Origin: Planctomycetota bacterium
GTDB lineage: Bacteria > Planctomycetota > SZUA-567 > H5-PLA8
Reading direction: 5' to 3'
DNA length: 64,000 nt
Assembly (NCBI GenBank): GCA_038227875.1
Contig: JBBRPR010000029.1
Span: forward strand, 36,939-100,938
The position numbers and the translations under genes were made by a program. The notes below the pieces were generated by a model that was given only the letters and a program-made list of their open reading frames with translations, did not search any database and was not told the DNA's origin. Each line of letters opens with the position of its first letter. Within the stretch, counting starts at the first letter, position 1. Positions 25,645-64,000 of the stretch are shown here, piece by piece.

Positions 25645-26937
25645 ATGCCGCCGTTCCGCCGCGGACTGACCGACTACGGACTGACGCGCCCCGCGGCGCC
25701 GAAGATCGATCCGGCCACGGGCAAGCCCAAAGCATGGACTGTCACGCAGGTCACGCGGCTGATTAAAGACTGCATCGAGAAATCGATCGGCGCTGTGTGG
25801 GTCGAAGGCGAAATCTCAAACTTTAAATGGTATTCGTCCGGCCACTGTTATTTCACATTGAAAGACGATGGCGCGCAGTTGTCGTGTGTGCTGTGGCGCG
25901 CCACAGCCGAACGACTGGCTTTTATGCCCGAGGACGGCACGAAGGTGCTCGTGCAGGGCCGCGTTTCTGTCTACGAACCTCGCGGACAGTACCAGCTGGT
26001 CGTGGAGCGCATGGAGCCACTCGGCGCCGGCGCTCTGGCCGTGGCGTTCGAGCAGCTCAAGAAAAAGCTCGCCGCTGAAGGATTGTTCGACGAGGACCGC
26101 AAGCGCGAGATCCCGCGCTTTCCGGCGTGCATTGGCATCGTCACCAGCCCTACGGGCGCCGCGATTCAGGATTTGCTCAAAGTCATCTTCAACCGCTGGC
26201 CGGCCAACATCATCATTGCCGGCGTGCGGGTGCAAGGCGATGGCGCGGCCGCGGAAGTCGCCGCGGCGATCCGCCAGATGAACCGTCTCACCGGTGCGAA
26301 CCGGCCGGATGTGCTGATCGTCGGGCGTGGCGGCGGTTCGCTGGAGGATCTGTGGGCCTTCAATGAGGAAGTCGTGGCGCGCGCGCTTGCGGCATCCGAG
26401 ATTCCCACGATCAGCGCGGTGGGCCACGAAGTCGATTTCACGATCTCGGATTTCGTCGCCGATGTCCGCGCCGCGACGCCCAGCCACGCCGGCGAGATGG
26501 TCGTCCCGCTCTACGCGGAATTGCAGGAGCGTCTTGCAGGCCTGCGCGGCCTGCTTCCCGCTGCGTTGCTGCGCCGCGTCGACGTGGCTCGCGACCGGCT
26601 GGAGGCGATCGAGCAAAGTTACGCGTTGCGCCATCCAGAAGCGCGAATGGGGATGTTGCGTCAGCGGCTGGATGATCTCTCCGCGCGCCTGCTTCCCGCG
26701 GGCGAGCGCCGCATTGCCGCCGGCCGCGACGCGATGGCGCGGTACGCCGGCCGCCTGGAATCGCTCTCGCCGCTGAAAGTGCTGGAGCGCGGATTTTCGG
26801 TCACGACGCGGCCTGATGGCACGGTGATTCGAAAGATCGAGGACGTCAGCGCCGGGGAGCTCATTCGGACGCGTGTTGGTAATGGGACAATTCAATCTCG
26901 CGTCGAAGGGGTTCAGCCGGAGGGCGAGAGAAGCTAA
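25645..26937 (+). CDS. xseA: Exodeoxyribonuclease VII large subunit
   Basis: VWVEGEISN, SGHCYFTLKD, VTSPTGAAIQD, GRGGGSLEDLWAFNEE, SAVGHEVD, RAATPS. Confidence 0.96.
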   Translation: MPPFRRGLTDYGLTRPAAPKIDPATGKPKAWTVTQVTRLIKDCIEKSIGAVWVEGEISNFKWYSSGHCYFTLKDDGAQLSCVLWRATAERLAFMPEDGTKVLVQGRVSVYEPRGQYQLVVERMEPLGAGALAVAFEQLKKKLAAEGLFDEDRKREIPRFPACIGIVTSPTGAAIQDLLKVIFNRWPANIIIAGVRVQGDGAAAEVAAAIRQMNRLTGANRPDVLIVGRGGGSLEDLWAFNEEVVARALAASEIPTISAVGHEVDFTISDFVADVRAATPSHAGEMVVPLYAELQERLAGLRGLLPAALLRRVDVARDRLEAIEQSYALRHPEARMGMLRQRLDDLSARLLPAGERRIAAGRDAMARYAGRLESLSPLKVLERGFSVTTRPDGTVIRKIEDVSAGELIRTRVGNGTIQSRVEGVQPEGERS

Positions 26938-27073
26938 CTTCGGTATTCACATCGCATTGGGTCCCGCCTGCAAACATACAGCCTGACAATTACCACATCA
27001 TCTTCACAATCCGGTTGACCGCGCCTCGCTAGTCTGCGAATATGTCCGCCTTAATCATTATCAAAGAGCTTGG

Positions 27074-27778
27074 ATGCACATGAAAAAGAAGACCACGGAA
27101 CTTGATCAGCCTCTTCCGGCGACCAGCACCGAACGCGTCCTGGAATGGATTCAGCAGTACATTGAAGCGCGGAACTTGACGCCCGGCGACGCGCTGCCGA
27201 AGGAATTGGAGATCGCGCAGTCCGTGGGCGTAGCGCGTTCGTCGGTTCGTGAAGCGTTGACCGCGCTGAAAGCGCTGGGGATCATCACCTCGCGAAAGAA
27301 GGGCGGCATCCGGATCGTGCGCGAACCGGTGTTGCTGGGCATGCGCGAATACCTGACGGTGAAGTACAATTCGAAGGCCTGCTTCTTCGACGCGATGGAA
27401 TTCCGCGCGGTACTGGAAAGCGGCTTGGCGGAATTGATTTTCCGGCAAATCTCCCGCAAGGAAGTAGCGGCGCTGCGCAAGATTCTTGACGAGTTGAGCA
27501 CGTTGCCGGGATCAGCCGGCGTGTGGGACGCGGAGAAGCGTTTCCATACGATCCTGACATCCGCTTCGCGCAACAAGCTTGCGCAATTGCTCTGCGCGCT
27601 TTATCAGCCAGTGTTCGATACGATTCAGGACGTTGAGAACAAAGAATACACCTGCAAGGATTGGGTGCAGGAGCACACGCCCTTCGTGGAAGCGCTGGAG
27701 AAGAACGACAAGGATAGCTTCATGACCGTCGTCCGGAACCACACGCTTCCGTACGTGAGACTCACGCCCAAACGGTAA
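27074..27778 (+). CDS. GntR/FadR-family transcriptional regulator
   Basis: PGDALPKELEIAQSVGVARSSVREAL; FCD-like FHTIL..ASRN. Confidence 0.9.
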   Translation: MHMKKKTTELDQPLPATSTERVLEWIQQYIEARNLTPGDALPKELEIAQSVGVARSSVREALTALKALGIITSRKKGGIRIVREPVLLGMREYLTVKYNSKACFFDAMEFRAVLESGLAELIFRQISRKEVAALRKILDELSTLPGSAGVWDAEKRFHTILTSASRNKLAQLLCALYQPVFDTIQDVENKEYTCKDWVQEHTPFVEALEKNDKDSFMTVVRNHTLPYVRLTPKR

Positions 27779-27780
27779 GT

Positions 27781-27879
27781 AACAGAGTCATTGGTCATTT
27801 ACGGGGTGCGATAGACAGCCGATTGGACTGTCACAACGCTTTTCCTAAATGAAAATGACCGATGCCCAATGACTCTGTT
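27781..27879. repeat. 99-bp element with 14-bp terminal inverted repeats (nested hairpin)
   Basis: AACAGAGTCATTGG ... CCAATGACTCTGTT, with inner GGTCATTT/AAATGACC and GACAG/CTGTC pairs. Confidence 0.6.
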
Positions 27880-27884
27880 CAGCG

Positions 27885-28280
27885 TTAGCGGAGCGCGTTG
27901 AGTTCCTTGGCCGCGCTTTCCAGAGTCGCTACGGCTTCCTGCAGCACTGTCGCGATGCGAGCGGCGACCATCTTGTCGACGATGCCCTGAATTGCGCCGA
28001 GGCCCGAACCCGCCGCCTTCGTCGCCTTTGCCGGACGTCCGCGGCGCTTGGCGCCTGATGGCCGGCCCGGCTTGCCACGGCGTTTGCCGCGTGCCTTGAT
28101 CGCGCCGGACGCGCCGCTGCCGCGAATCATCTTCACGAGATACTGCTGACCGCCTTTATATCCGGCGTTTTCGGCGGCGCTGAGTGCCTCGCCCCACTGC
28201 TTGCCCTCTTTACGCGCATCCACCGCAGCCTGAATAATGGCAGCCTTGGTCTGGTCGTCGTACGGACTCGGTCGAGCCAT
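27885..28280 (-). CDS. Small basic protein with AT-hook-like GRP motifs (putative DNA-binding)
   Basis: KRRGKPGRPSGAKRRGRPAK; AGAGGGG RBS; amphipathic C-terminal helix. Confidence 0.75.
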   Translation of the reverse strand: MARPSPYDDQTKAAIIQAAVDARKEGKQWGEALSAAENAGYKGGQQYLVKMIRGSGASGAIKARGKRRGKPGRPSGAKRRGRPAKATKAAGSGLGAIQGIVDKMVAARIATVLQEAVATLESAAKELNALR

Positions 28281-28483
28281 GCGGAAAATCCCCTCTTAGC
28301 AATTTTGTTAAAGCCACATATACGGCGCAAGGGCGCGATTTATACGAGGGTGAACGGAGATTATCAACGCGAGAACAGCGCGGGCGTTGTAGCTGTTTTT
28401 AGATGCTGCCGGGCACTGCAAGCGATGAAGAGTTATTCCGTGTGAAAAATTTCAAAAAATATGCGCAGGAAGCCCTGCGAAAT

Positions 28484-28513
28484 TTGCATTGAATACTTTC
28501 AATAGCGTATAGT
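28484..28513 (+). promoter_or_regulatory. Putative sigma70 promoter with overlapping palindromic operator
   Basis: TTGCAT-N18-TATAGT; palindrome ATTGAA-TACT-TTCAAT at 28488-28503. Confidence 0.4.
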
Positions 28514-28555
28514 GATTTTGTCGCCGAAAAATCTTAGGAGGGCTTGAGAAAGTAG

Positions 28556-29344
28556 ATGTCAGAAGACGAATCCGCGGTTCTCTTCGTATCGTTGATTGTA
28601 TCCCTGATCCTGTGGTGCCGCTGGTATCTGGCGCTCGCCACGGTCTCGCAACTCGGCAACTCGCACGCTTCCCGCATCCCGCTTTTTCTCACGCCGTTGT
28701 TCTGTGCCGCGTTTTTGTTCGTGGTTTTACTGCTGTGGTCGGCGGCCGATGTTCGCACCAGCGCTGAGTACATTGCACTGTTCATGTTGTCCGGTGCGGC
28801 CACGGTGGGAATGACGCTCGTGCTGATGCCGCTGTTCGGCCTGAGCTGCAGAGACGACGCCGTTGACACACCCAATCGCGCGGCGCGCTGGGTTTCGTGC
28901 GCGGTGATGATTTCGACGACGCTGGTGTTCGCCTGCGCCAACATTGGCGAGGGCGAGACGATCTGGATGACGCTCCTTCCCGCCGCGCTGGGGTTGGCCA
29001 CGCTCGGTGCGCTTTGGATGGCGCTGGAGTGTACATGTCATTTCTCGGAAGCGATCGCGGTGGAGCGCGATTTCGACGCGGGGCTTCATCTCTCTGGTTT
29101 TCTGCTCGCCAACGGACTCCTTCTCGGCCGTGCGGTGGCTGGCGATTTTGTTTCGTGGGATGCGACATGCATTGATTTTGTCCGCCTGGGTTTTCCGTCA
29201 GTGCTGTTGGCTGGCGTAGTCGTTGGCATTGTCCGTGCGGCGAAAAGCCAATCCGCGTCCAAGCGCCCGGCATGGGCGCGGGGATTCACGCCGGTGGGAA
29301 TACAACTGATCGTCGCTCTGGTTTGGACGTGGATCACACGATGA
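28556..29344 (+). CDS. Polytopic membrane protein, DUF350-like duplicated repeat
   Basis: About 8 hydrophobic segments; repeats DDAVDTPNRAA / EAIAVERDFDAG resemble the DUF350 E-I-x3-N-x-A pattern. Confidence 0.65.
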   Translation: MSEDESAVLFVSLIVSLILWCRWYLALATVSQLGNSHASRIPLFLTPLFCAAFLFVVLLLWSAADVRTSAEYIALFMLSGAATVGMTLVLMPLFGLSCRDDAVDTPNRAARWVSCAVMISTTLVFACANIGEGETIWMTLLPAALGLATLGALWMALECTCHFSEAIAVERDFDAGLHLSGFLLANGLLLGRAVAGDFVSWDATCIDFVRLGFPSVLLAGVVVGIVRAAKSQSASKRPAWARGFTPVGIQLIVALVWTWITR

Positions 29345-56280: not shown

Positions 56281-56497
56281 CTCTTAATACCATAGAAACG
56301 CGAACAGGATCAGGATTTTTACCTCCCCCGTTTCCGCCCCGGCCTCGCAAACAAGGTAAAATCCCGTCCGTGCCGAACCTGGCTCCATCTCCCCTTTGCC
56401 TCACATGGACGCGCCGCCTTTGCAAACCGCCCCGACCACGATTTTTTCGGCGTGAGCAATCTGGCAATTGCCGAACGTCGGCGTATCATACAGGGCT

Positions 56498-57484
56498 ATG
56501 AGCATTTACGACCGTGGCTATATGAATGAAGACGAGTCCGGCGGCGGAGGCCGTTCGGCCGCTGGGACATTGATTTTCCTGAATATCGCCGTCTGGGTGG
56601 TGTGGCAGTTCGCCATGAGTAACAGCGAAGAGCCGACCGCGCTCTACACGTTCATGAGCGAAAATTTCATGTGCAGCTTCGACGGGGTGTTTCGCCACTT
56701 CCGTCTGCACACCTTGATCACCTCCGCATTTTCGCACCAGGACCTCAGCCACATTTTCTGGAACCTGCTCTTCTTCTGGTTCCTCGCCGATGAAGTTGAA
56801 CGCGTCTACGGAAAGCTGAATTTCTACTGGCTCTACATCTTTGGAGCCATCGCGGCATCGCTGGCGCATATTGGTTCGACCGGAATGAATCCCAACGGGC
56901 TGACCAGTATTCCCATGCTCGGCGCATCTGGTGCGATCATGGGGATTGCCGTCGTTGCGGCGATTTTCGATCCCAACCGCCCGGTGAATCTCTTCGGATT
57001 CATCACGCTGCCGTTGAAATGGCTGGTCGGTCTCTACGTGCTGATGGATCTCTACCACGCGATCAATTTGCACCGTGGCTTCAGCATGGGTGCGATTGCC
57101 TACGGCGCGCATCTCGGCGGCGCGCTGGGCGGCTACGTCTTCTGGCGGCTGGACCTGCGCGTCTTCCGCACCCGCGGCCGGATCGAAACGGGATTTCTGC
57201 AACGCTTCACGCGCTGGCTAAAGCGTCCGCGCACCGGCCGGGCCTCTTCGACTCCGCTGGACGACATCCCGCGCGAACTCCCCCGCGAACCCGTGGCGCA
57301 GCGCGCCCCGACGCGCCTGGCCGCTGCGTCCAGCAGCCGGACGAGCGGACGGTCGCAAGTTGATGCTGCCACCTCCGCGCGCGTCGACGAGATTCTCGGC
57401 AAGATTTCGCGCGAAGGCATGAACGCGTTGACCGACGAAGAGCGCCGCTTCTTGCAGGAATCCAGCCAGAAGTATAAAAAGTAA
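56498..57484 (+). CDS. Rhomboid intramembrane serine protease with C-terminal DUF6576-like helix pair
   Basis: FSH..HIFWN, GASG, AHLGG; tail VDEILGKISREGMNALTDEERRFL. Confidence 0.92.
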   Translation: MSIYDRGYMNEDESGGGGRSAAGTLIFLNIAVWVVWQFAMSNSEEPTALYTFMSENFMCSFDGVFRHFRLHTLITSAFSHQDLSHIFWNLLFFWFLADEVERVYGKLNFYWLYIFGAIAASLAHIGSTGMNPNGLTSIPMLGASGAIMGIAVVAAIFDPNRPVNLFGFITLPLKWLVGLYVLMDLYHAINLHRGFSMGAIAYGAHLGGALGGYVFWRLDLRVFRTRGRIETGFLQRFTRWLKRPRTGRASSTPLDDIPRELPREPVAQRAPTRLAAASSSRTSGRSQVDAATSARVDEILGKISREGMNALTDEERRFLQESSQKYKK

Positions 57485-59432: not shown

Positions 59433-59520
59433 GAACTCGCGGACGCGGGTTGCTGGTACGTGAGACGGCGTGGGATTCTATCTCAAACTAATGGCACCGC
59501 TTTACGCGACTGCCTTCTCG

Positions 59521-60429
59521 TCACTTCGGTTCCGAATACTTCTGCACCTTCTCGTCCACATCCTTATTGTTCGTCTCGATGTCCAGCTTCGAGGCGTCGT
59601 CGCGCTTCTTCTCGTCGCGGAATTCCGTGCCGCGGTGCGGGCCGGCCATGGCTTTGCGCACTTCCTTTTCCTCGGCCAGCCGCGTCGCCGGCAGCGCCGG
59701 CTTCACGACGTAATCGACCAGTTCCTGGCGGAACACTTCTTCGTTCATGAAGTACTTCGAACGGCGTACGAGTCCCACGTTCGGCGCGAACCAGTAGCGG
59801 AAGATTTCCTTCCGGTCGCGCGATTCCTGACGCGCCACCACGCAATCGTGGAACGGACCCTTCGGCGTCGAAACCGTTTCTGAGGCCGATTCGATCTCGT
59901 AGTAAAGATCCTGCCCGCCCGGCGCGGAGACGATCCACTTGTAGCCCGTGTGCGGCGGCAGGATCAGCAGGTAACTGCGTCCGCGCTGGCTCTGAAATCC
60001 AACATAGCCGCTCTTTTTCGACCAGACCTGTTCGGCTGTGTCATAAAGCGCGCGGTACGTGAGGTCATCGACCGACGCGCGCAATTCCAGCGCGACGCGG
60101 CGCGCCACTGCTGGTCGTTCGGATTTCGTCTCGGTCTTGCCCGTGCCATCCGGATCGATCACATCGGCCTTCGGCGCGACCTGCGAATCCGGATCGTCGC
60201 TCGCCTTGGCCTTGATGTCGTCGTCGATTGCCGCCGTGGTAACCGTCTGTCCCGCAGCCATGCGCTTCAGCAGCGGCCGGTCGAGCAGCCGGTACTCCCA
60301 ATGGTTGCCATCGCGGAGCGGAAAGTAATCGGTCTTCGGCACATCCTTCTCGCACCCGCCAATCACCGCCAGCAAGGCGAACAGGGAGAGCGCACTTAGC
60401 GTACGTTTTTTCGTGAGGTTCATGGTCAT
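59521..60429 (-). CDS. Putative lipoprotein
   Basis: Lipobox IGGC; DYFPLRDGNHWEY, ETVSTPKGPFHDC, YWFAPNVGLVR pattern. Confidence 0.75.
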   Translation of the reverse strand: MTMNLTKKRTLSALSLFALLAVIGGCEKDVPKTDYFPLRDGNHWEYRLLDRPLLKRMAAGQTVTTAAIDDDIKAKASDDPDSQVAPKADVIDPDGTGKTETKSERPAVARRVALELRASVDDLTYRALYDTAEQVWSKKSGYVGFQSQRGRSYLLILPPHTGYKWIVSAPGGQDLYYEIESASETVSTPKGPFHDCVVARQESRDRKEIFRYWFAPNVGLVRRSKYFMNEEVFRQELVDYVVKPALPATRLAEEKEVRKAMAGPHRGTEFRDEKKRDDASKLDIETNNKDVDEKVQKYSEPK

Positions 60430-60516
60430 GTTTTATCGGACGTTTGCAACCGAGTACACCACCAAAAATTCCCGCGCCTCAACCACGACTTGTGCGCCCA
60501 AACGCTTGCGGCCTTC

Positions 60517-60548
60517 AATTCAAAACTCAAAACTCAAAATTCAAAACT
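60517..60548. repeat. AAYTCAA heptamer tandem repeat x4.5
   Basis: AATTCAA AACTCAA AACTCAA AATTCAA AACT. Confidence 0.75.
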
Positions 60549-60580
60549 ACCTCAGCGCGCTCCACGCCGAGTAGCCGCCG

Positions 60581-60925
60581 CTATTTCGGCGCCACCGTAG
60601 TCAGAAAAACTGCCGCGCCGCCCGGTACGGCAACGACAATCCCTGCATCCAGCGCACCTTTTACTTCGCCCACAGGTTTGGGCAGTCCGTCGGCATCGGC
60701 GGGAGCGGATGAAGCCGTGTAATCGTAGCGCCAGAGGGAGACCTTTCCGCCCTCAGCGGCATGCAATTTCACCAGCGTCTCGGAGGCGTTGCGGTTGACG
60801 ATCACGAAGGTCCAGCCGGAAGTCTCGGGCGTCTCGCCCGGAAGTTTTGCGGCAATGGCGCGAATGTGTCGGGGCAATCCGGAAATCTGATAGGTCGTCG
60901 CGCCGGGACGGACGGTCCGAAAGGC
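60581..60925 (-). pseudogene. 3' remnant of a larger gene (glycoside-hydrolase C-terminal beta-sandwich-like)
   Basis: Frame reads FRTVRPGATTYQISGLPRHIRAIAAK...WTFVIVNR...VPGGAAVFLTT with no credible start or RBS. Confidence 0.5.
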
Positions 60926-61124
60926 TCTGCTGTCATCAAGCGGACAGTAGCGGACGCTAACGTACGTCTAATGTACGAGCAGAGGAACACAGAATCAGCA
61001 CAGGAAGTTGTTGGGGTTATGGGAATGGGGGCGGTTCGGTCGCCAACTTGACGATGCCTGCCTGCAAGTATCCAGTAACGTCGTCGTTTATAGAATATAG
61101 GGTTCCGATTTGATCGGGCGACAA

Positions 61125-61874
61125 ATGAAACGAGTCCTCTTGCTGGTCATCGCTTCGTTCTCCATAGTCTGCTGTCTTTTCTTATTTTTTAACCGCAATG
61201 CCCCGCCAACGTACGATATTGCCCTTCATCTCAATGGGGAACAGCTTGTTTGCGACGGCAACGCGGCAGGACTGGACTGGCGAGAAGTTTGGCGGAAAAA
61301 TCTCGACACTTTGATCAAGTCAGAAGGCGGCAAGCAAGGATCAATCCGAACACGGCGGCTGATTTTGAAATTGGACTCCGACCTGTCCTATGGCGTTTTT
61401 CAAGACTTGCTGATAGAAAGCTCGTCTCGCGGCTACATAAACTACGGCGTAACGCTCGGCATTTCTGACGCTGTGATTCTCTTTACCCTCTATCCCAACG
61501 CCCAGAGCCGTCCAGACGGAATTTATACGGCGCTCGAATTGTTGATAAATTCTAAAGGACACGGCAGCATTGACGAAAAATCATTTAAGACCGCCATTCA
61601 AGGGAATCCAATGTATCTCAAGATTGTTCCAGACGACGATGTCTCGATAATGCAAATTCTTCGGCCTATCGAACTACTGGCTCCAAAATCAGGGCAAGCC
61701 TTGGTCGAATTCTTGGCAACTCGTACGCGTTCCGAGCGGAACTGTGGGAAGAAAAGCGCGACATTTGTTTGGCAAACGCGGAATATTGAGATTAGGCATG
61801 GTAGCGAGATTGTCGTCGTACCGGACGAAATCTTGGAAAAGGCAGAAGTCGAAGAGTCGTCTCCAAAAAAATAG
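61125..61874 (+). CDS. Low-GC single-TM protein with ExbD/TolR-like domains
   Basis: N-terminal TM; LILKLDSDLSYGVFQDLL....RGY and LKIVPDDDVSIMQI resemble the ExbD periplasmic motif. Confidence 0.55.
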   Translation: MKRVLLLVIASFSIVCCLFLFFNRNAPPTYDIALHLNGEQLVCDGNAAGLDWREVWRKNLDTLIKSEGGKQGSIRTRRLILKLDSDLSYGVFQDLLIESSSRGYINYGVTLGISDAVILFTLYPNAQSRPDGIYTALELLINSKGHGSIDEKSFKTAIQGNPMYLKIVPDDDVSIMQILRPIELLAPKSGQALVEFLATRTRSERNCGKKSATFVWQTRNIEIRHGSEIVVVPDEILEKAEVEESSPKK

Positions 61875-61916
61875 GCTCCAATGAACTCGCTTTCTATGGC
61901 CCACAATCGCCCACCC

Positions 61917-62039
61917 ATGCGCCTCCTGCCGCTCCTCCTGCTCCTGCCCGCCGCATGGCTGCTCGCCGCCGAGCCGCAGTACCCGCTTTGGGACGGCTCC
62001 GAGTCCGTCGCCGACTACGCCAAGCGGGTCAACCTGCCT
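61917..62039 (+). pseudogene. 5' stump of a secreted protein gene (signal peptide plus YPLWDGSESVADYAKRVNL)
   Basis: GC-rich host-like codons stop abruptly at 62040, where the opposite-strand low-GC gene ends; from recall the motif resembles the N-terminus of formylglycine-generating-enzyme-domain proteins. Confidence 0.55.
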
Positions 62040-62040
62040 G

Positions 62041-62403
62041 TTACTTGCGCACTCTGCCCTCTCGCCACATTCTGTCCACCGATTGGCCGAGTCGCAATCC
62101 CTTTCTGGTTAGACAATACCCATCATTTTTCGCTCCGACCTCTTTGCCAGATCGCCGCCGCAAAATTCCGTCCGAAACCAGACGTGCCAACGCTTGCTCA
62201 GCGACAGTGGTCGTAATTGTAGGAAGAAACGGTTTGACGTACTCTGCAACGGGTTCTCCTACAACTTCCCTATAAAGTTCTGCGTCCGAATACCAATTAT
62301 TTTCACGGTAAGCAGTTATGACAATCAAAAACTCTGGGTGGGATACATGGCACTCCGCCATGATCCATGTTAGTTTCTCAAAAACAGCCTCGCCAAGAGT
62401 CAT
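62041..62403 (-). CDS. Low-GC hypothetical protein with winged-helix-like C-terminus
   Basis: EQALARLVSDGILRR...GYCLTRKG wHTH-like pattern. Confidence 0.55.
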   Translation of the reverse strand: MTLGEAVFEKLTWIMAECHVSHPEFLIVITAYRENNWYSDAELYREVVGEPVAEYVKPFLPTITTTVAEQALARLVSDGILRRRSGKEVGAKNDGYCLTRKGLRLGQSVDRMWREGRVRK

Positions 62404-62448
62404 GCTTTAAGAATATGCTTTGCCGTTACGATCGCAAGGGCGGTTCGC

Positions 62449-62790
62449 TCATGGCTTGCGGCCCTCGCGGCGGCGGATGAGGGACTCGGTAGCCAATGCT
62501 GAAACACCGAGAATTATCATCCAGCAACTGAAATTTAACCACAATTTGTAGTCAGAATAATCTGTTCCGTGCTCACTCAACAAAAATGAAAATGGCCAGC
62601 CACATTTTGCACTACATCTAGCAGTCAATCCCCATTTCTCGAAGGTGTAGCTGACCGAATTCTGATTTAGGTACATTATGGCCCCAGCGACAGTTACCAT
62701 CACTAACGCCGTCAGCAGATGGAACCTGAACCACGGGCGCTCCGGCTTCTCGCACAGCGGTCGCTCGCCTGTTATCGAGGAACTTGCCAT
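62449..62790 (-). CDS. Small two-TM protein with GC-rich termini and AT-rich core
   Basis: KPERPWFRFHLLTALVMV..AG (TM1), GWP, TM2, ESLIRRREGRKP. Confidence 0.7.
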   Translation of the reverse strand: MASSSITGERPLCEKPERPWFRFHLLTALVMVTVAGAIMYLNQNSVSYTFEKWGLTARCSAKCGWPFSFLLSEHGTDYSDYKLWLNFSCWMIILGVSALATESLIRRREGRKP

Positions 62791-63127
62791 GACCTGTCTC
62801 CGTACTTTGCCTGTTGCTGATGATTACGCCAACCCGCGCAACGTTGATCAGGTCACTTGAACAGTTGCCACTTCTCATCCACCGCCGCCATCCTACCGCC
62901 GCCCCGCCCCTCCGGCCATACAATCCCGGCGTCGGGAACAGCCGTTTGCGGGGCGTCTGGGCGGGTCGGGGGGCGAAAAGGGCGGTTCCGTAGGGGTTCG
63001 GCGGCTGGGGACGCAGGGGGACGATCAGGAAGCGATTCCTGCTCTACTGGACATCAACCTTTGCCCAATCTCCGCCGAGCCATTACCATGACCAAAGGAA
63101 TTGATAGCCATAAGACTGGATTGAGAC

Positions 63128-63350
63128 ATGCAATACGCAAAATGGGTATTCGGAGTTTTTGGATTGATTGTTTTTTGTCGGGGTCTTCGTTGGTAATTCT
63201 TTGGCCATTGCCGCATGGTTTCTACGGAGACGGAAATCATCAATGATCCCGCTGATTGGCGGTGCTTTCGGAGCAATCGGCGCATTGGTGATCCCAGTTC
63301 CCACTATTCAGGCATTATGGTGCTGCCGCCACTTATCGAACCCGGTACCA
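63128..63350 (+). pseudogene. Frameshifted small membrane protein gene
   Basis: MQYAKWVFGVFGLIV / FFVGVFVGNS...SMIPLIGGAFGAIGALVIPVPTIQALW / LPPLIEPGT continues across three frames, with shifts near the T-run 63171-63176 and near 63321. Confidence 0.5.
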
Positions 63351-63466
63351 GAGCCATTGAAGCCGCTAGTCCGTTGCGAAAAATACGAGGAACCGCCCAA
63401 GGACGCGCTCAGCGAACTTGGGCGAGTAATTGGCGGCGGATCGCAGTTAGGCGAAGGGAACACGTT

Positions 63467-63796
63467 ATGCAGGCGCTCACCAAAGAAGAGATTCAGAAAC
63501 TTCCTCGCTGTGATGTGGAGCTTGCCGGGATTGATTGGCAACCGGACATGCTACTCGTATTCACGCTCCTCTTACCTGATGGCATGCGCGCTCGTTTGCG
63601 TGGGACATTCGCACGTCACCTGAATATCCAGTTGGAGTTCGACGAGCGCAGTGGCGGCTACCCAATGACTTGGGATATAATCTATTCCAAGTTGCCAGAT
63701 AACGGCTGGCACATTCTGATGGACTTCGCAGGCAAAGGAGCAATCGAGTTCGACTGTTCCGAATTGCACTTTGAGTATGTCACGAACGCCGGCTAG
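63467..63796 (+). CDS. Small beta-rich hypothetical protein (polymorphic-toxin immunity-like)
   Basis: GAAGGGA RBS, 109 aa, acidic; ends GAIEFDCSELHF, reminiscent of Imm50-type proteins. Confidence 0.5.
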   Translation: MQALTKEEIQKLPRCDVELAGIDWQPDMLLVFTLLLPDGMRARLRGTFARHLNIQLEFDERSGGYPMTWDIIYSKLPDNGWHILMDFAGKGAIEFDCSELHFEYVTNAG

Positions 63797-63840
63797 GAAG
63801 CCGGAGATGCAGCGCCACTGGTGAATCTAATGGACGCCGA

Positions 63841-64000
63841 CTACGCCCGCTTTTCCTCTCGCCCCGGCTCCTCCCCCAGCACGATCTCCCCAAGCGCGTT
63901 CGCCACCGTCTTCAGCCGCTCGTTCCGCGCCCTGCCATACGTCACCAGCGTCAGCGTCGGGTTCTTGTGGCGCGCCAGCGACATCGCCTCTTTGACGCTC
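63841..64000 (-). CDS. Tyrosine recombinase/integrase, C-terminal end (gene continues beyond the window)
   Basis: Translates SVKEAMSLARHKNPTLTLVTYGRARNERLKTVANALGE..., i.e. the box II L-x-x-H...T..Y catalytic motif. Confidence 0.8.
   Translation of the reverse strand, partial: SVKEAMSLARHKNPTLTLVTYGRARNERLKTVANALGEIVLGEEPGREEKRA

Follow-up and report, generated by a model that had tools for sequence, protein, structure and literature searches.

A probable array relic from a planctomycete family of predicted two-helix membrane proteins with conserved ends and variable cores

In Anaplasma msp2/p44, Neisseria pilE/pilS and Borrelia vls, conserved ends enclose a hypervariable centre, and this arrangement is maintained by gene conversion. 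Integron arrays contain co-oriented small ORFs with a conserved junction between them, include empty or partial units and vary in content. In diversity-generating retroelements, variation is limited to a defined region of a protein-coding gene that is conserved elsewhere. Polymorphic toxin systems carry tandem arrays of small and diverse genes, and Zhang et al. 2012 (PMC3482391) describe their diversification through recombination with standalone cassettes via conserved coding segments.

The gene analysed here lies in a 64,000-nucleotide stretch of planctomycete DNA (the window) and belongs to a family that shares some features with each of these systems. Like msp2/p44, pilE/pilS and vls, the family has many copies with conserved coding flanks around a hypervariable stretch that encodes an exposed region of a membrane protein or surface protein, and the flanks would act as recombination substrates. 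In contrast, the planctomycete units are complete, co-oriented and ATGA-coupled, with no single expression site or silent partial cassettes. The three systems are found in host-associated pathogens, whereas the planctomycete family is found in a free-living sediment bacterium. Its protein is a predicted two-helix inner-membrane hairpin. With integrons the family shares co-oriented small ORFs, a conserved junction and empty or partial units, but the junction is in-frame coding sequence rather than an attC hairpin, the units are paralogs of one family, and no tyrosine recombinase is present on any array contig. As in diversity-generating retroelements, a defined variable region lies in a conserved gene; however, the arrays have no reverse transcriptase nearby, and loop length ranges from about 35 residues to 110, which goes beyond substitutions at fixed positions. 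The immunity arrays of polymorphic toxin systems (PMC3482391) are also tandem arrays of small and very diverse genes, whereas the planctomycete units are all mutually homologous, have no adjacent toxin or immunity family and also occur as in-frame fusions.

The gene in the window and the stub behind it

The family member in the window is an ORF on the minus strand (62449..62790, stop included) that encodes 113 aa. A sequence-only reading of this DNA had pointed to GC-rich ends and an AT-rich core within the one ORF, and the measured GC content agrees with it: 0.70 at 62721-62770 and 0.725 at 62451-62490, versus 0.394 at 62501-62680. A GC content of 0.39 or less was found in just 0.25% of 155,198 sampled 180-nt windows of the genome, of which the mean GC is 0.596. 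The GC3 values of the N-terminal part, the core and the C-terminal part are 0.69, 0.44 and 0.62, thus the contrast is also seen at third codon positions.

Codons 1–13 (MASSSITGERPLC, 62752..62790) form a non-canonical N-terminal extension. The canonical family start ATG-AGC is CTG-TGC here (codons 12–13), and because the canonical ATG is lost, translation must begin 11 codons further upstream. The in-frame ATG of the ORF has GGAG 6 nt upstream, as read from the sequence. The following N-motif E-K-P-E-R-P-W-F-R-F-H-L-L-T-A (residues 14–28, 62707..62751) is GC-rich, would be cytoplasmic, and is conserved at the DNA level among the subfamily units, with a nucleotide identity of 0.67–0.74 versus 0.24–0.27 in the cores. 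The N-terminal region had also been read as a degenerate copy of the junction between units. This was correct for GAGAAGCCGGAGCGCCCGTGGTTC (E-K-P-E-R-P-W-F), which is homologous to canonical codons 3–10, but not for the similarity proposed further upstream. There, the summed score was 30 versus 29.1 ± 9.3 for shuffled sequences, and 421 of 1000 shuffles reached it in a test that is weak because of its free end gaps; six of the nine local alignments scored within the range of the shuffles.

Predicted transmembrane helix 1 (residues 25–42, 62665..62718) was placed by the AF2 model and the alignment and ends at the conserved N42. It is followed by a unit-specific variable loop of low GC content (residues 43–79, 62554..62664), which contains four short predicted strands and the invariant GWP (62593-62601). 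Predicted helix 2 (residues 80–110) lies within 62452..62553, and the conserved tail E-S-L-I-R-R-R-E-G-R-K-P occupies residues 102–113 (62452-62487). The tail codons, the ATGA stop/start overlap and the first codons of the next unit together make up a 30-nt family junction (62447..62476), which shows no mismatch to the family pattern and carries GAGG(G) 9–10 nt ahead of the next ATG. All these elements are on the minus strand.

The stop of the ORF overlaps, through ATGA, the start of an 8-codon stub on the same strand (62426..62452; MSEPPLRS, then TAA), as the sequence-only reading had described. The stub matches the family N-termini (MSEPP..., MSEKP...) over about five codons and then passes into unrelated low-GC DNA. 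The proposal that it is the beginning of a lost next unit, and the gene a relic of a tandem array, fits the family data given below. The position where the next array unit would be expected, downstream on the same strand, is taken by a low-GC gene for a 120-aa HxlR-like winged-helix protein (62041..62403, minus strand; PF01638, E 5.1e-05, 23.5 bits versus a cut-off of 20.8), which is not a family member. The window copy therefore does not stand in a tandem array, since there is no upstream unit and the downstream side consists of the stub and then the HTH gene. The gene lies in a low-GC mosaic region at the contig end, which is 1.2 kb upstream. No Rfam match at E ≤ 0.1 was found over 59500–64000, promoter and terminator counts in 61900–63300 were no higher than in shuffled sequences, and local repeats in 60900–64000 were short pairs at chance level.

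A lineage-restricted family and its arrays

In a search of the own genome, the window ORF matches the family profile A1 with an E value of 2.0e-28 over positions 3–116 of 116, and the iterated own-genome profile with 4.4e-32. The invariant and near-invariant set of the family comprises the R before W-F, H-L-x-T-A, the N at the end of helix 1, the loop G-W-P, the E at the end of helix 2 and the R-R-R tail; in alignments A1 and A3, R18, H24, L25, T27, A28, N42, G64, W65, P66, E102 and R106–108 are all kept in the window ORF. Each unit consists of a basic N-motif (R-x-WF-x-FHL-(L/S)-TA), helix 1, a variable loop with GWP, helix 2 and the tail E-x-L-I-RRRE-x-RKP. The unit model drawn earlier from the single copy (MSE.P..PWF.FHL.TA, loop, GWP, RRRE.RKP) agrees with this family consensus. 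The N-terminus is short and basic (K/R-R-W-F-x-F-H-L-S/L-T-A), and the loops have 35–110 residues and are wholly different between units except for the invariant G-W-P.

The AF2 model of the window protein (mean pLDDT 82.5) contains H25–42, E46–52, E55–63, E70–72, E76–78 and H80–110, that is, two predicted transmembrane helices flanking a short loop modelled as beta-rich. By the positive-inside rule, both ends of the unit would be cytoplasmic and the loop periplasmic. The window ORF has no Pfam-A family match and no PADLOC match, and its sole NCBIfam row is SecE (E 0.055, 13 bits versus a cut-off of 95). Ten relatives, including multi-unit forms, gave nothing above the curated cut-offs. Foldseek found no PDB match at E ≤ 0.001 for the one-unit or the two-unit model; claudin-type auxiliary subunits appeared for the two-unit model as weak rows only (E 0.14 and 1.6). 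The best VIA-align results were Z 6.4 (rmsd 2.2, 64 aligned) and Z 5.2–5.7 for the one-unit model, and Z 7.8, 7.3 and 6.8 for the two-unit model, in helical hairpins only. These Z scores are within the range of the tool for unrelated helical hairpins, and no fold was assigned from them. P2X and Mrs2/CorA-type pores, compared in the fold search only, have the same topology of helix, outside segment and helix, but the family units have no sequence relationship with them and no evidence for channel function.

A word-based search that started from the window protein yielded a single weak relative, with 31% identity over the whole protein as the best outside match, and no close relative of the window loop; the family was revealed by the profile search. 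In the own genome, 84 ORFs match the iterated profile (E ≤ 1e-3), in line with the earlier expectation of many paralogs. Matches were found in 14 of 16 other genomes of the same bacterial family (10–83 each) but in none of 14 genomes from the sampled other families of the order and class, and in a phylum-wide draw 4 of 151 genomes matched, the own genome counted. At E ≤ 1e-3, 4986 representative clusters (about 5000 clusters at 50% identity) match the family profile. Distant metagenome relatives keep the tail as protein (RRREARKP in P0004 and P0007, RRREGRKL in P0001), and other organisms carry in-frame fusions of 2–4 units, for example ...RRREARKT-MSEPDKPKRKFWQFHLST.... The family is a lineage-restricted, unannotated multigene family of small, predicted inner-membrane proteins. 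A description of it was not found in the literature searched, and it has no curated family or name.

In the subfamily of the window gene, the units are arranged head to tail, and the ATGA stop/start overlap makes the tail and the next N-terminus one conserved coding junction. Seven co-oriented units, joined by ATGA or by 1–2 nt gaps, are found at 101652–104558 of contig C28, and further ATGA-linked arrays on contigs C61, C77 and C24; tandem ATGA-linked arrays had been predicted from the window copy. All array units are complete genes, each with a start and a stop codon, and share a single orientation. The 30-nt junction occurs in 14 copies in the own genome (≤6 substitutions), the window copy included, and with 1–3 mismatches in three genomes of two other genera. 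It varies between genera and even between arrays: in a genome of a second genus (G015), six tandem units are joined by a different junction (RRRAARKGD, TGA, aat, ATG), and the tail has AAGGGGGA where the own-genome tail has GAGG(G), 8–10 nt before the next start. Units without a core are present on C24 (MRD-IRRREGRRP*) and C22 (N-motif joined to the tail), and stubs behind a junction on C22 (MSDKPKRTMA*), in the window and at the 3' end of a G015 array. Unrelated genes are attached to the junction on C28 and C77, and a unit may directly follow a housekeeping-type gene, such as a 941-aa ORF on C61. The junction arrays are often at contig ends (C28, C24, C77 and C22).

Conservation of unit ends and turnover of cores

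Near-identical ends with unrelated low-GC cores had been predicted, and the paralogs have conserved ends and unalignable cores of lower GC content. The same-codon fraction was scored at identical, degenerate amino acids among 12 junction-type units, with helix 2 as the internal control. It was 0.81 (398/491) versus 0.38 expected in the tail and 0.60 (298/495) versus 0.40 expected in the N-motif, but 0.34 (101/299) versus 0.38 expected in helix 2 of the same 12 genes; since the paralog pairs are non-independent, these fractions overstate the sample size. The three Arg codons of the tail are CGC in 34 of 36 cases. In contrast, the Gly codons of GWP are scrambled (GGA 4, GGC 4, GGT 2 and GGG 2). 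C28 units with unalignable cores share identical stretches of 39–45 nt.

The same mosaic was found in the second genus. The nucleotide identity among the six tandem G015 units is 0.92–0.95 over the first 90 nt versus 0–0.38 in the core. For 19 G015 units from 6 arrays, the same-codon fraction was 0.87/0.73 on the N-terminal side and 0.72/0.70 on the C-terminal side, versus 0.32 expected, and 20 G015 GWP motifs showed 11 Gly/Pro codon combinations. Ends of units from one genome share an identity of 0.78, regardless of whether the units belong to one array or to different ones; between genomes the value falls to 0.60. The mean GC3 of 31 own-genome units is 0.70 in the N-terminal part, 0.57 in the core and 0.62 in the C-terminal part, with an average of 0.726 for the long ORFs of the genome, and 5 of 6 G015 units follow the same GC trend. 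Two G015 cores that were searched in G015 and three congeners gave self-matches only.

Even divergence among paralogs, the pattern that the sequence-only reading had set against its own model, was found in one recent pair, C28a/C28b. In this sole clearly recent duplicate pair the divergence is about even (pN 0.125, 0.130 and 0.103; pS 0.38, 0.22 and 0.16), with a core dN/dS of about 0.5. This pair, the only recent one that can be aligned, points neither to a special process nor to positive selection in the loop.

Contigs from two sediment-metagenome runs of one study were also compared with the locus. Their depth at the junction is 104 versus about 12, and the loop has a single-copy depth of 13; the depth is raised at 62680–62813, and both conserved ends are raised. 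At least three metagenome contigs contain junction-to-junction duplicates, which derive from paralogs. No alternative join or rearrangement of the window locus was seen in the contigs of the two runs. A weak joint from 62038 to 62445 was observed in one metagenome contig (side 20).

These results show that the unit ends are conserved at the DNA level beyond the need of the protein and in a genome-specific way, and that the cores are saturated, length-variable, lower in GC content and unique. The excess of end codon identity, the scrambled GWP codons and the mosaic in the second genus suggest that the ends are much younger than the cores, through gene conversion or core exchange; the age of the cores would follow from their unalignability and from the two degenerate GWP codons. 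Because junction DNA is also found in other genera, the sequence itself may be under selection, which would account for part of its conservation.

Explanations for the mosaic and its possible role

The window gene probably comes from a family of two-helix membrane proteins whose ends recombine and whose cores turn over, and is now stranded, the copy itself being a relic of an array. It looks intact and stands alone, and may be the last survivor of its array. The ends would be kept alike by recombination between units, by gene conversion or by unequal crossing-over inside an array or from one array to another, or cores may instead be replaced through crossovers in the conserved ends. The same recombination would expand, contract and break arrays. 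Homogenised, recombining ends beside fast-turnover cores that drift to the mutational AT bias would fit the GC-rich ends and AT-richer cores. In the window, the downstream partner would have been cut after eight codons by unrelated low-GC DNA with an HTH gene, and the canonical start would have decayed, with the upstream ATG taking over. Recombination at the ends, as proposed in the sequence-only reading, is indirectly supported by the excess of end codon identity, the GWP scrambling, the genome-specific haplotypes and the core-less units and stubs, but the dedicated shuffling mechanism that it envisaged was not seen.

Ordinary birth and death of genes is an unlikely account of these data. Under it, units would duplicate in tandem, ends would be under purifying selection, loops would evolve fast, recombination would have no special role and the stub would be a deletion scar. 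Tail and N-motif are indeed conserved as protein in distant metagenome relatives, junction DNA is found with 1–3 mismatches in two other genera, C28a/C28b diverge uniformly, and the array contigs have no recombinase or reverse transcriptase. In two genera, an SD-like GAGG or AAGGGGGA also precedes the next start by 8–10 nt, and a ribosome-binding site within the tail that couples translation could constrain synonymous tail sites without recombination. However, selection on the protein or the ribosome-binding site leaves unexplained the codon identity of 0.73–0.87 over roughly 29 codons of N-block and helix 1 in the G015 units, and birth and death does not explain the identical 39–45 nt stretches in C28 units with unalignable cores, or the genome-specific end haplotypes (0.78 versus 0.60) beside scrambled GWP codons. 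If the ends date the duplications (5–8% divergence), point mutation could not have randomised cores with many length changes. That the window ORF is non-functional, either a pseudogene fragment in decay or an ORF that arose by chance in low-GC DNA gained by horizontal transfer, is highly improbable. It is a solo copy without its canonical start, next to a truncated unit, in a low-GC mosaic region at a contig end, and no RNA run was found to contain the stretch, which counts neither for nor against a pseudogene. However, no stop interrupts the reading frame along the whole unit, every invariant and near-invariant residue is retained, the profile E value is 2.0e-28, the in-frame ATG has GGAG 6 nt upstream and the AF2 model is confident.

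The mosaic architecture and the footprints of recombination would also be expected if the junction were a dedicated high-frequency recombination site that varies displayed loops, as in antigenic-variation or shufflon systems. Arrays at contig ends, which are expected for repeats and also for heterogeneous loci, and the junction-to-junction duplicates in at least three metagenome contigs point in the same direction. Such programmed cassette shuffling is nevertheless very unlikely: none of the 25 PF00589 matches in the genome lies on C22, C24, C28, C29, C61 or C77 (several of these arrays end at contig ends), so that no junction-array contig carries a site-specific recombinase, and the two RVT_1 matches (C83; C4:146449) are on other contigs or more than 45 kb away from the arrays, so that no reverse transcriptase is nearby. 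The genes are complete and co-oriented, neither a single expression site nor silent cassettes are present, different genera and even different arrays have different junctions, and the contigs of the two metagenome runs have no alternative join at the locus. It is also quite unlikely that the arrays are orphan immunity genes, encoding membrane immunity proteins against polymorphic toxins that act on the envelope, with the window copy as a leftover. The units are small, co-oriented, coupled and very diverse paralogs, some of them followed by unrelated small ORFs, the window gene lies within a low-GC mosaic region, and polymorphic toxin systems are described as recombining with standalone cassettes (PMC3482391). 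However, Pfam searches of the window and of array-linked ORFs revealed neither toxin domains nor secretion-system genes nor a known immunity family, none was found beside the 48 own-genome members examined, some of whose neighbours were scanned against Pfam, and neither a Pfam immunity family nor a PADLOC match was obtained; units are also fused in frame (2–4 repeats) and placed behind housekeeping-type genes (941-aa ORF, C61).

Under the preferred reading of recombining ends and renewed cores, the function could tentatively be that of a co-expressed repertoire of membrane-anchored periplasmic recognition loops, which might serve envelope protection or immunity (against toxins or phages) or self/non-self recognition. 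These loops would then share a scaffold made of the conserved helices and the cytoplasmic motifs. The neighbours of the 48 members differ from case to case, and no toxin, phage or partner gene recurs among them (some were Pfam-scanned), so the context does not support the proposed function. There is a slim chance that the family forms a true repertoire system, in which dozens of loops have cores continually exchanged or renewed through junction recombination from a large population pool, as an immune-like or kin-recognition surface code; the same improbable joint reading would place the junction under selection as a recombination handle, beyond protein or ribosome-binding site.

The family comprises about 5000 clusters with up to 83–84 copies per genome, is nearly confined to one planctomycete family and has no curated family. 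Its mosaic is the architecture of antigenic-variation and immunity-cassette systems, here in a free-living bacterium and with complete, coupled genes. For annotation, the family accounts for a class of very short ATGA-linked stubs, ORFs without a core and contig breaks in the genomes that carry it. Should the ends indeed recombine, the family would be a natural system for the partition of concerted evolution and diversification within a 350-bp gene, and for asking whether GC-biased conversion shapes bacterial genes at the 350-bp scale and which envelope-level conflicts planctomycetes face.

Family definition and range

The protein encoded by the window gene (113 residues, minus strand, 62449-62790) has no family in Pfam, NCBIfam or PADLOC. 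A protein search of the 9.34-Mb source assembly gave 61 matches at E ≤ 10, and an iterated profile collected 84 stop-to-stop ORFs at E ≤ 1e-3, which bears out the multiple paralogs expected by the sequence-only reading. The consensus of one unit was drawn from two alignments, one of 23 own-genome members and one of 66 members that also covers metagenome representatives. It starts with M-x(4-5)-(K/R)-R-x-W-F-(R/Q)-F-H-L-(L/S)-T-A (N-motif), followed by a hydrophobic helix ending in N (helix 1), a loop that varies greatly in length and sequence around an invariant G-W-P, and helix 2, which has N or D at its start and E at its end and leads into the tail x-L-I-R-R-R-E-x-R-K-P. The AlphaFold2 model of the window protein (66-row alignment, mean pLDDT 82.5) contains a helix at residues 25-42, four short strands and a helix at residues 80-110. 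By the positive-inside rule, which puts basic ends of membrane proteins in the cytoplasm, both unit ends would be cytoplasmic and the loop would face the periplasm. No match to the model was found by Foldseek at E ≤ 0.001, and fold searches returned generic helical hairpins only (best VIA-align Z 6.4).

Of 16 further genomes from the same taxonomic family, 14 matched the family profile, with 10-83 matches apiece; the remaining two are small assemblies (3.1 and 4.2 Mb). The profile matched none of 14 genomes drawn from other families in this order and class. In an even draw across the phylum, 4 of 151 genomes matched: the source genome, two of the same family and one elsewhere with a single hit. 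Among 1.84 billion representative proteins, 4986 clusters matched at E ≤ 1e-3 and 2523 at E ≤ 1e-10, and the nearest clusters were placed in Planctomycetota (Atlas). No curated protein family contains the units, source records give nothing beyond 'hypothetical protein', and a literature search, with subscription journals outside its coverage, found no published description.

Many of the representative relatives carry 2-4 units in one in-frame protein (e.g. ...RRREARKT-MSEPDKPKRKFWQFHLST...), including P0002, P0003, P0005 and about 90 of the 150 best representatives, and some of them read through the same junction that links separate genes (RRREARKT-MSEP...). Two-unit ORFs also occur on own-genome contigs C6, C8, C14, C28 (at 31902), C32, C48, C51 and C71. 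Since fused proteins and separate genes of the same repeat were both found, split and fused forms coexist, and the fusions suggest that units may act side by side in the membrane.

Arrays, junctions and the window gene

Tandem arrays with ATGA stop/start overlaps, another expectation of that reading, were found in the source genome; contig C28 carries seven co-oriented units up to the contig end, most of them joined by ATGA. The 30-nt junction occurs in 14 genome copies at ≤6 substitutions (seven on C28, two each on C24 and C77, one each on C61, C22 and in the window); 12 copies were found at ≤3 mismatches versus 0 for the reversed control, and the window copy has 0 mismatches. Past the last junction of arrays lie unrelated genes (C28:101386-101655 and C77:1118), next-unit stubs (C22, MSDKPKRTMA-stop, and the window) or core-less units (C24 and C22). 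In the core-less unit at C24:453-517 (locus L050), MRD-IRRREGRRP-stop, the two junctions are 35 nt apart. In the other (C22:~700-850, locus L049), the N-motif (..KRPWFQIHLST) is almost directly joined to the tail and a 10-codon stub follows. Similar junction-junction duplicates of 34-43 nt were present in at least three metagenome contigs. One unit of the C28 array (C28:102478-103020; L004:959-1501, minus strand) keeps the family start and helix 1, but GWP, helix 2 and tail are missing from the roughly 150 residues that follow; it has no Pfam family and is a hybrid of the N-module with a different body. On C61, the stop of a 918-941 aa ORF ending in ...GIQKP (26116-28872, plus strand), which looks like a glycosyltransferase from its sequence, forms an ATGA overlap with the leading unit of a two-unit array; ordinary genes can thus be coupled to arrays.

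The window gene was well supported as one surviving unit of an array: its junction is matched elsewhere, its stop overlaps (ATGA) a new start reading MSEPPLRS and then TAA (62426-62452, minus strand), and where a next unit would be expected there is low-GC DNA carrying an HxlR-like winged-helix gene (62041-62403, minus strand; Pfam scan). The GC contrast counted by hand agreed exactly with computed values of 0.70 (62721-62770), 0.725 (62451-62490) and 0.394 (62501-62680). AT content as high as that of 62501-62680 was reached in only 0.25% of 155,198 sampled 180-nt genome windows (genome GC 59.6%), and third-codon-position GC (GC3) was 0.69 at the N end, 0.44 in the core and 0.62 at the C end. 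The degenerate junction proposed within the gene's own N-terminus held in part: the E-K-P-E-R-P-W-F stretch shares homology with canonical codons 3-10 in the sister units, but similarity farther upstream was at shuffle level (421 of 1000 shuffles reached the summed score, a weak test). The canonical start ATG-AGC is CTG-TGC here, and no family unit lies upstream, where the contig ends 1.2 kb farther. The window gene is an ordinary, decayed solo member of the family.

The last 3 kb of the contig (61000-64000; 53% GC versus 60% in the rest of the window) appears to be a mosaic of unrelated small genes and fragments, namely a 254-aa membrane-anchored ORF, the HTH gene, the family relic and a 109-aa ORF. 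The last of these (63467-63796, plus strand) has no Pfam, NCBIfam or PADLOC family and is a real conserved gene next to the fast-evolving family member, judging by 10 metagenome homologs of equal length and 65-79% identity. An ORF at 61881-62216 (plus strand) has a GC-rich (67-78%), signal-peptide-like beginning, runs antisense through the HTH gene from about 62040 and looks like a secreted-protein gene truncated to its 5' end; within it, the segment 61914-62038 had raised metagenome depth (92 and 51) and matched a 2210-nt metagenome contig at 11 differences. A rhomboid-family intramembrane protease gene with a DUF6576 C-terminus (56468-57484, plus strand; PF01694, E 1.1e-22) lies 5 kb from the family member. 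At 60516-60551, a simple 7-mer repeat (four CAAAACT-type copies, variable flanks) had a depth of about 770-2240 versus about 12 in both metagenome runs, which looks like low-complexity cross-matching rather than a repeat family of this genome.

Ends versus cores

For 12 junction-type units, codon identity was compared at those alignment positions where the amino acid is identical and degenerate, with expectations from genome codon usage. The same-codon fraction was 0.81 in the ten-codon tail (398/491, expected 0.38), 0.60 in the N-motif (298/495, expected 0.40) and 0.51 in the rest of helix 1 (166/324, expected 0.39), versus 0.34 in helix 2, the internal control from the same genes (101/299, expected 0.38). 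Leaving out one recent duplicate changed little (0.83, 0.58, 0.49 and 0.29, respectively). The three tail arginines use CGC in 34 of 36 cases, and all four glycine codons occur at the invariant Gly of GWP (GGA 4, GGC 4, GGT 2, GGG 2). Paralog pairs are non-independent in these fractions, so the meaningful part is the contrast with helix 2 and GWP of the same genes. Anchored nucleotide identity in 11 units was 0.85-0.87 in the tail, 0.67-0.74 in the FHLLTAVLMM region and 0.24-0.27, the random level, in cores. The unit ends are conserved as DNA beyond protein need.

The same mosaic of conserved ends and divergent cores was found in a second genus with another junction. An array of G015, a species from another genus, has six units and a truncated seventh, joined by ...W-L-I-R-R-R-A-A-R-K-G-D, TGA, aat, ATG-GCG-ACG-GTT. 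Its units are 0.92-0.95 identical in their first 90 nt, against 0-0.38 in the middle and 0.52-0.71 close to the 3' end. Across 19 units of six G015 arrays, the same-codon fraction was 0.87 within and 0.73 between arrays for the N-block, and 0.72 and 0.70 for the C-block (expected 0.32 from the cores' own codon usage), and 20 GWP motifs used 11 different Gly/Pro codon combinations. For two G015 cores, searches of G015 and three congeners returned no relative. Among the best-scoring units, a non-random sample, pairs from one genome had an end identity of 0.78 (45 pairs from the same array, 200 from different arrays) and pairs from different genomes 0.60 (616 pairs); end haplotypes differ between G015 and G013, two species of one genus. 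Sequence comparison thus indicates, genome by genome, that unit ends share much more recent ancestry than cores.

Proposed recombination between units and possible role

This split would have arisen from recombination between units: gene conversion or unequal crossing-over may homogenise the ends, or crossovers within the conserved ends may replace the cores. Broken arrays, core-less units and stubs may be traces of the same process. Alternatively, a recent burst of duplications could have been followed by ordinary divergence. Even divergence, named by the sequence-only reading as refuting evidence, was seen in C28a/C28b, the only clearly recent pair (pN 0.125, 0.130 and 0.103; core dN/dS about 0.5). 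Under a duplication burst, cores would have had to diverge to random-level identity and change length many times with only 5-8% difference at the ends, and core divergence so far beyond that of the ends is impossible by ordinary point mutation. The C28a/C28b pair, the presence of the junction DNA (1-3 mismatches) in two other genera, represented by three genomes, and the two G015 cores that lack relatives speak against recombining ends or limit that reading. A G-rich Shine-Dalgarno-like motif lies 8-10 nt before the next start in both junction types, so translational coupling can explain part of the tail's synonymous conservation; it does not explain that of the N-block and helix 1.

Mean GC3 of 31 own-genome units was 0.70 at the N end, 0.57 in the core and 0.62 at the C end, versus 0.726 in long ORFs, and ends exceeded cores in five of six G015 units (0.61-0.83 versus 0.52-0.55). 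This pattern fits both recombining ends, with GC-biased conversion and codon usage at the genome norm, and fast-turnover cores drifting toward AT. In two metagenome runs of one study, depth at the two ends of the window gene was 104 and 23.5 versus about 12, and the core was single-copy (13); contigs from these runs showed no alternative arrangement of the locus. The recombination reading is further limited in that none of 25 tyrosine recombinase matches in the genome lay on the six array contigs and neither of two reverse transcriptase matches lay near arrays, several of which reach contig ends.

The msp2/p44, pil and vls multigene families have conserved flanks and hypervariable centres, which is also the pattern of these units. 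The arrays resemble the orphan cassette arrays of polymorphic toxin systems (PMC3482391). The tested defining features of integrons, DGRs and toxin-immunity loci were absent from the family and its arrays. Neighbours of 48 own-genome members were heterogeneous (a sulfate-activation-type enzyme, glycosyltransferase-like and multihaem ORFs, regulators), with no recurrent toxin, phage or partner gene among them. The family is unnamed and lineage-restricted, and its homogenised ends are set off from its unique cores with unusual clarity. Because many genes are co-oriented and coupled, and each combines the constant membrane scaffold with a unique exposed loop of its own, the leading suggestion for their role, offered tentatively, is that they may be expressed together as a repertoire of periplasmic recognition loops that serve protection or recognition at the envelope.
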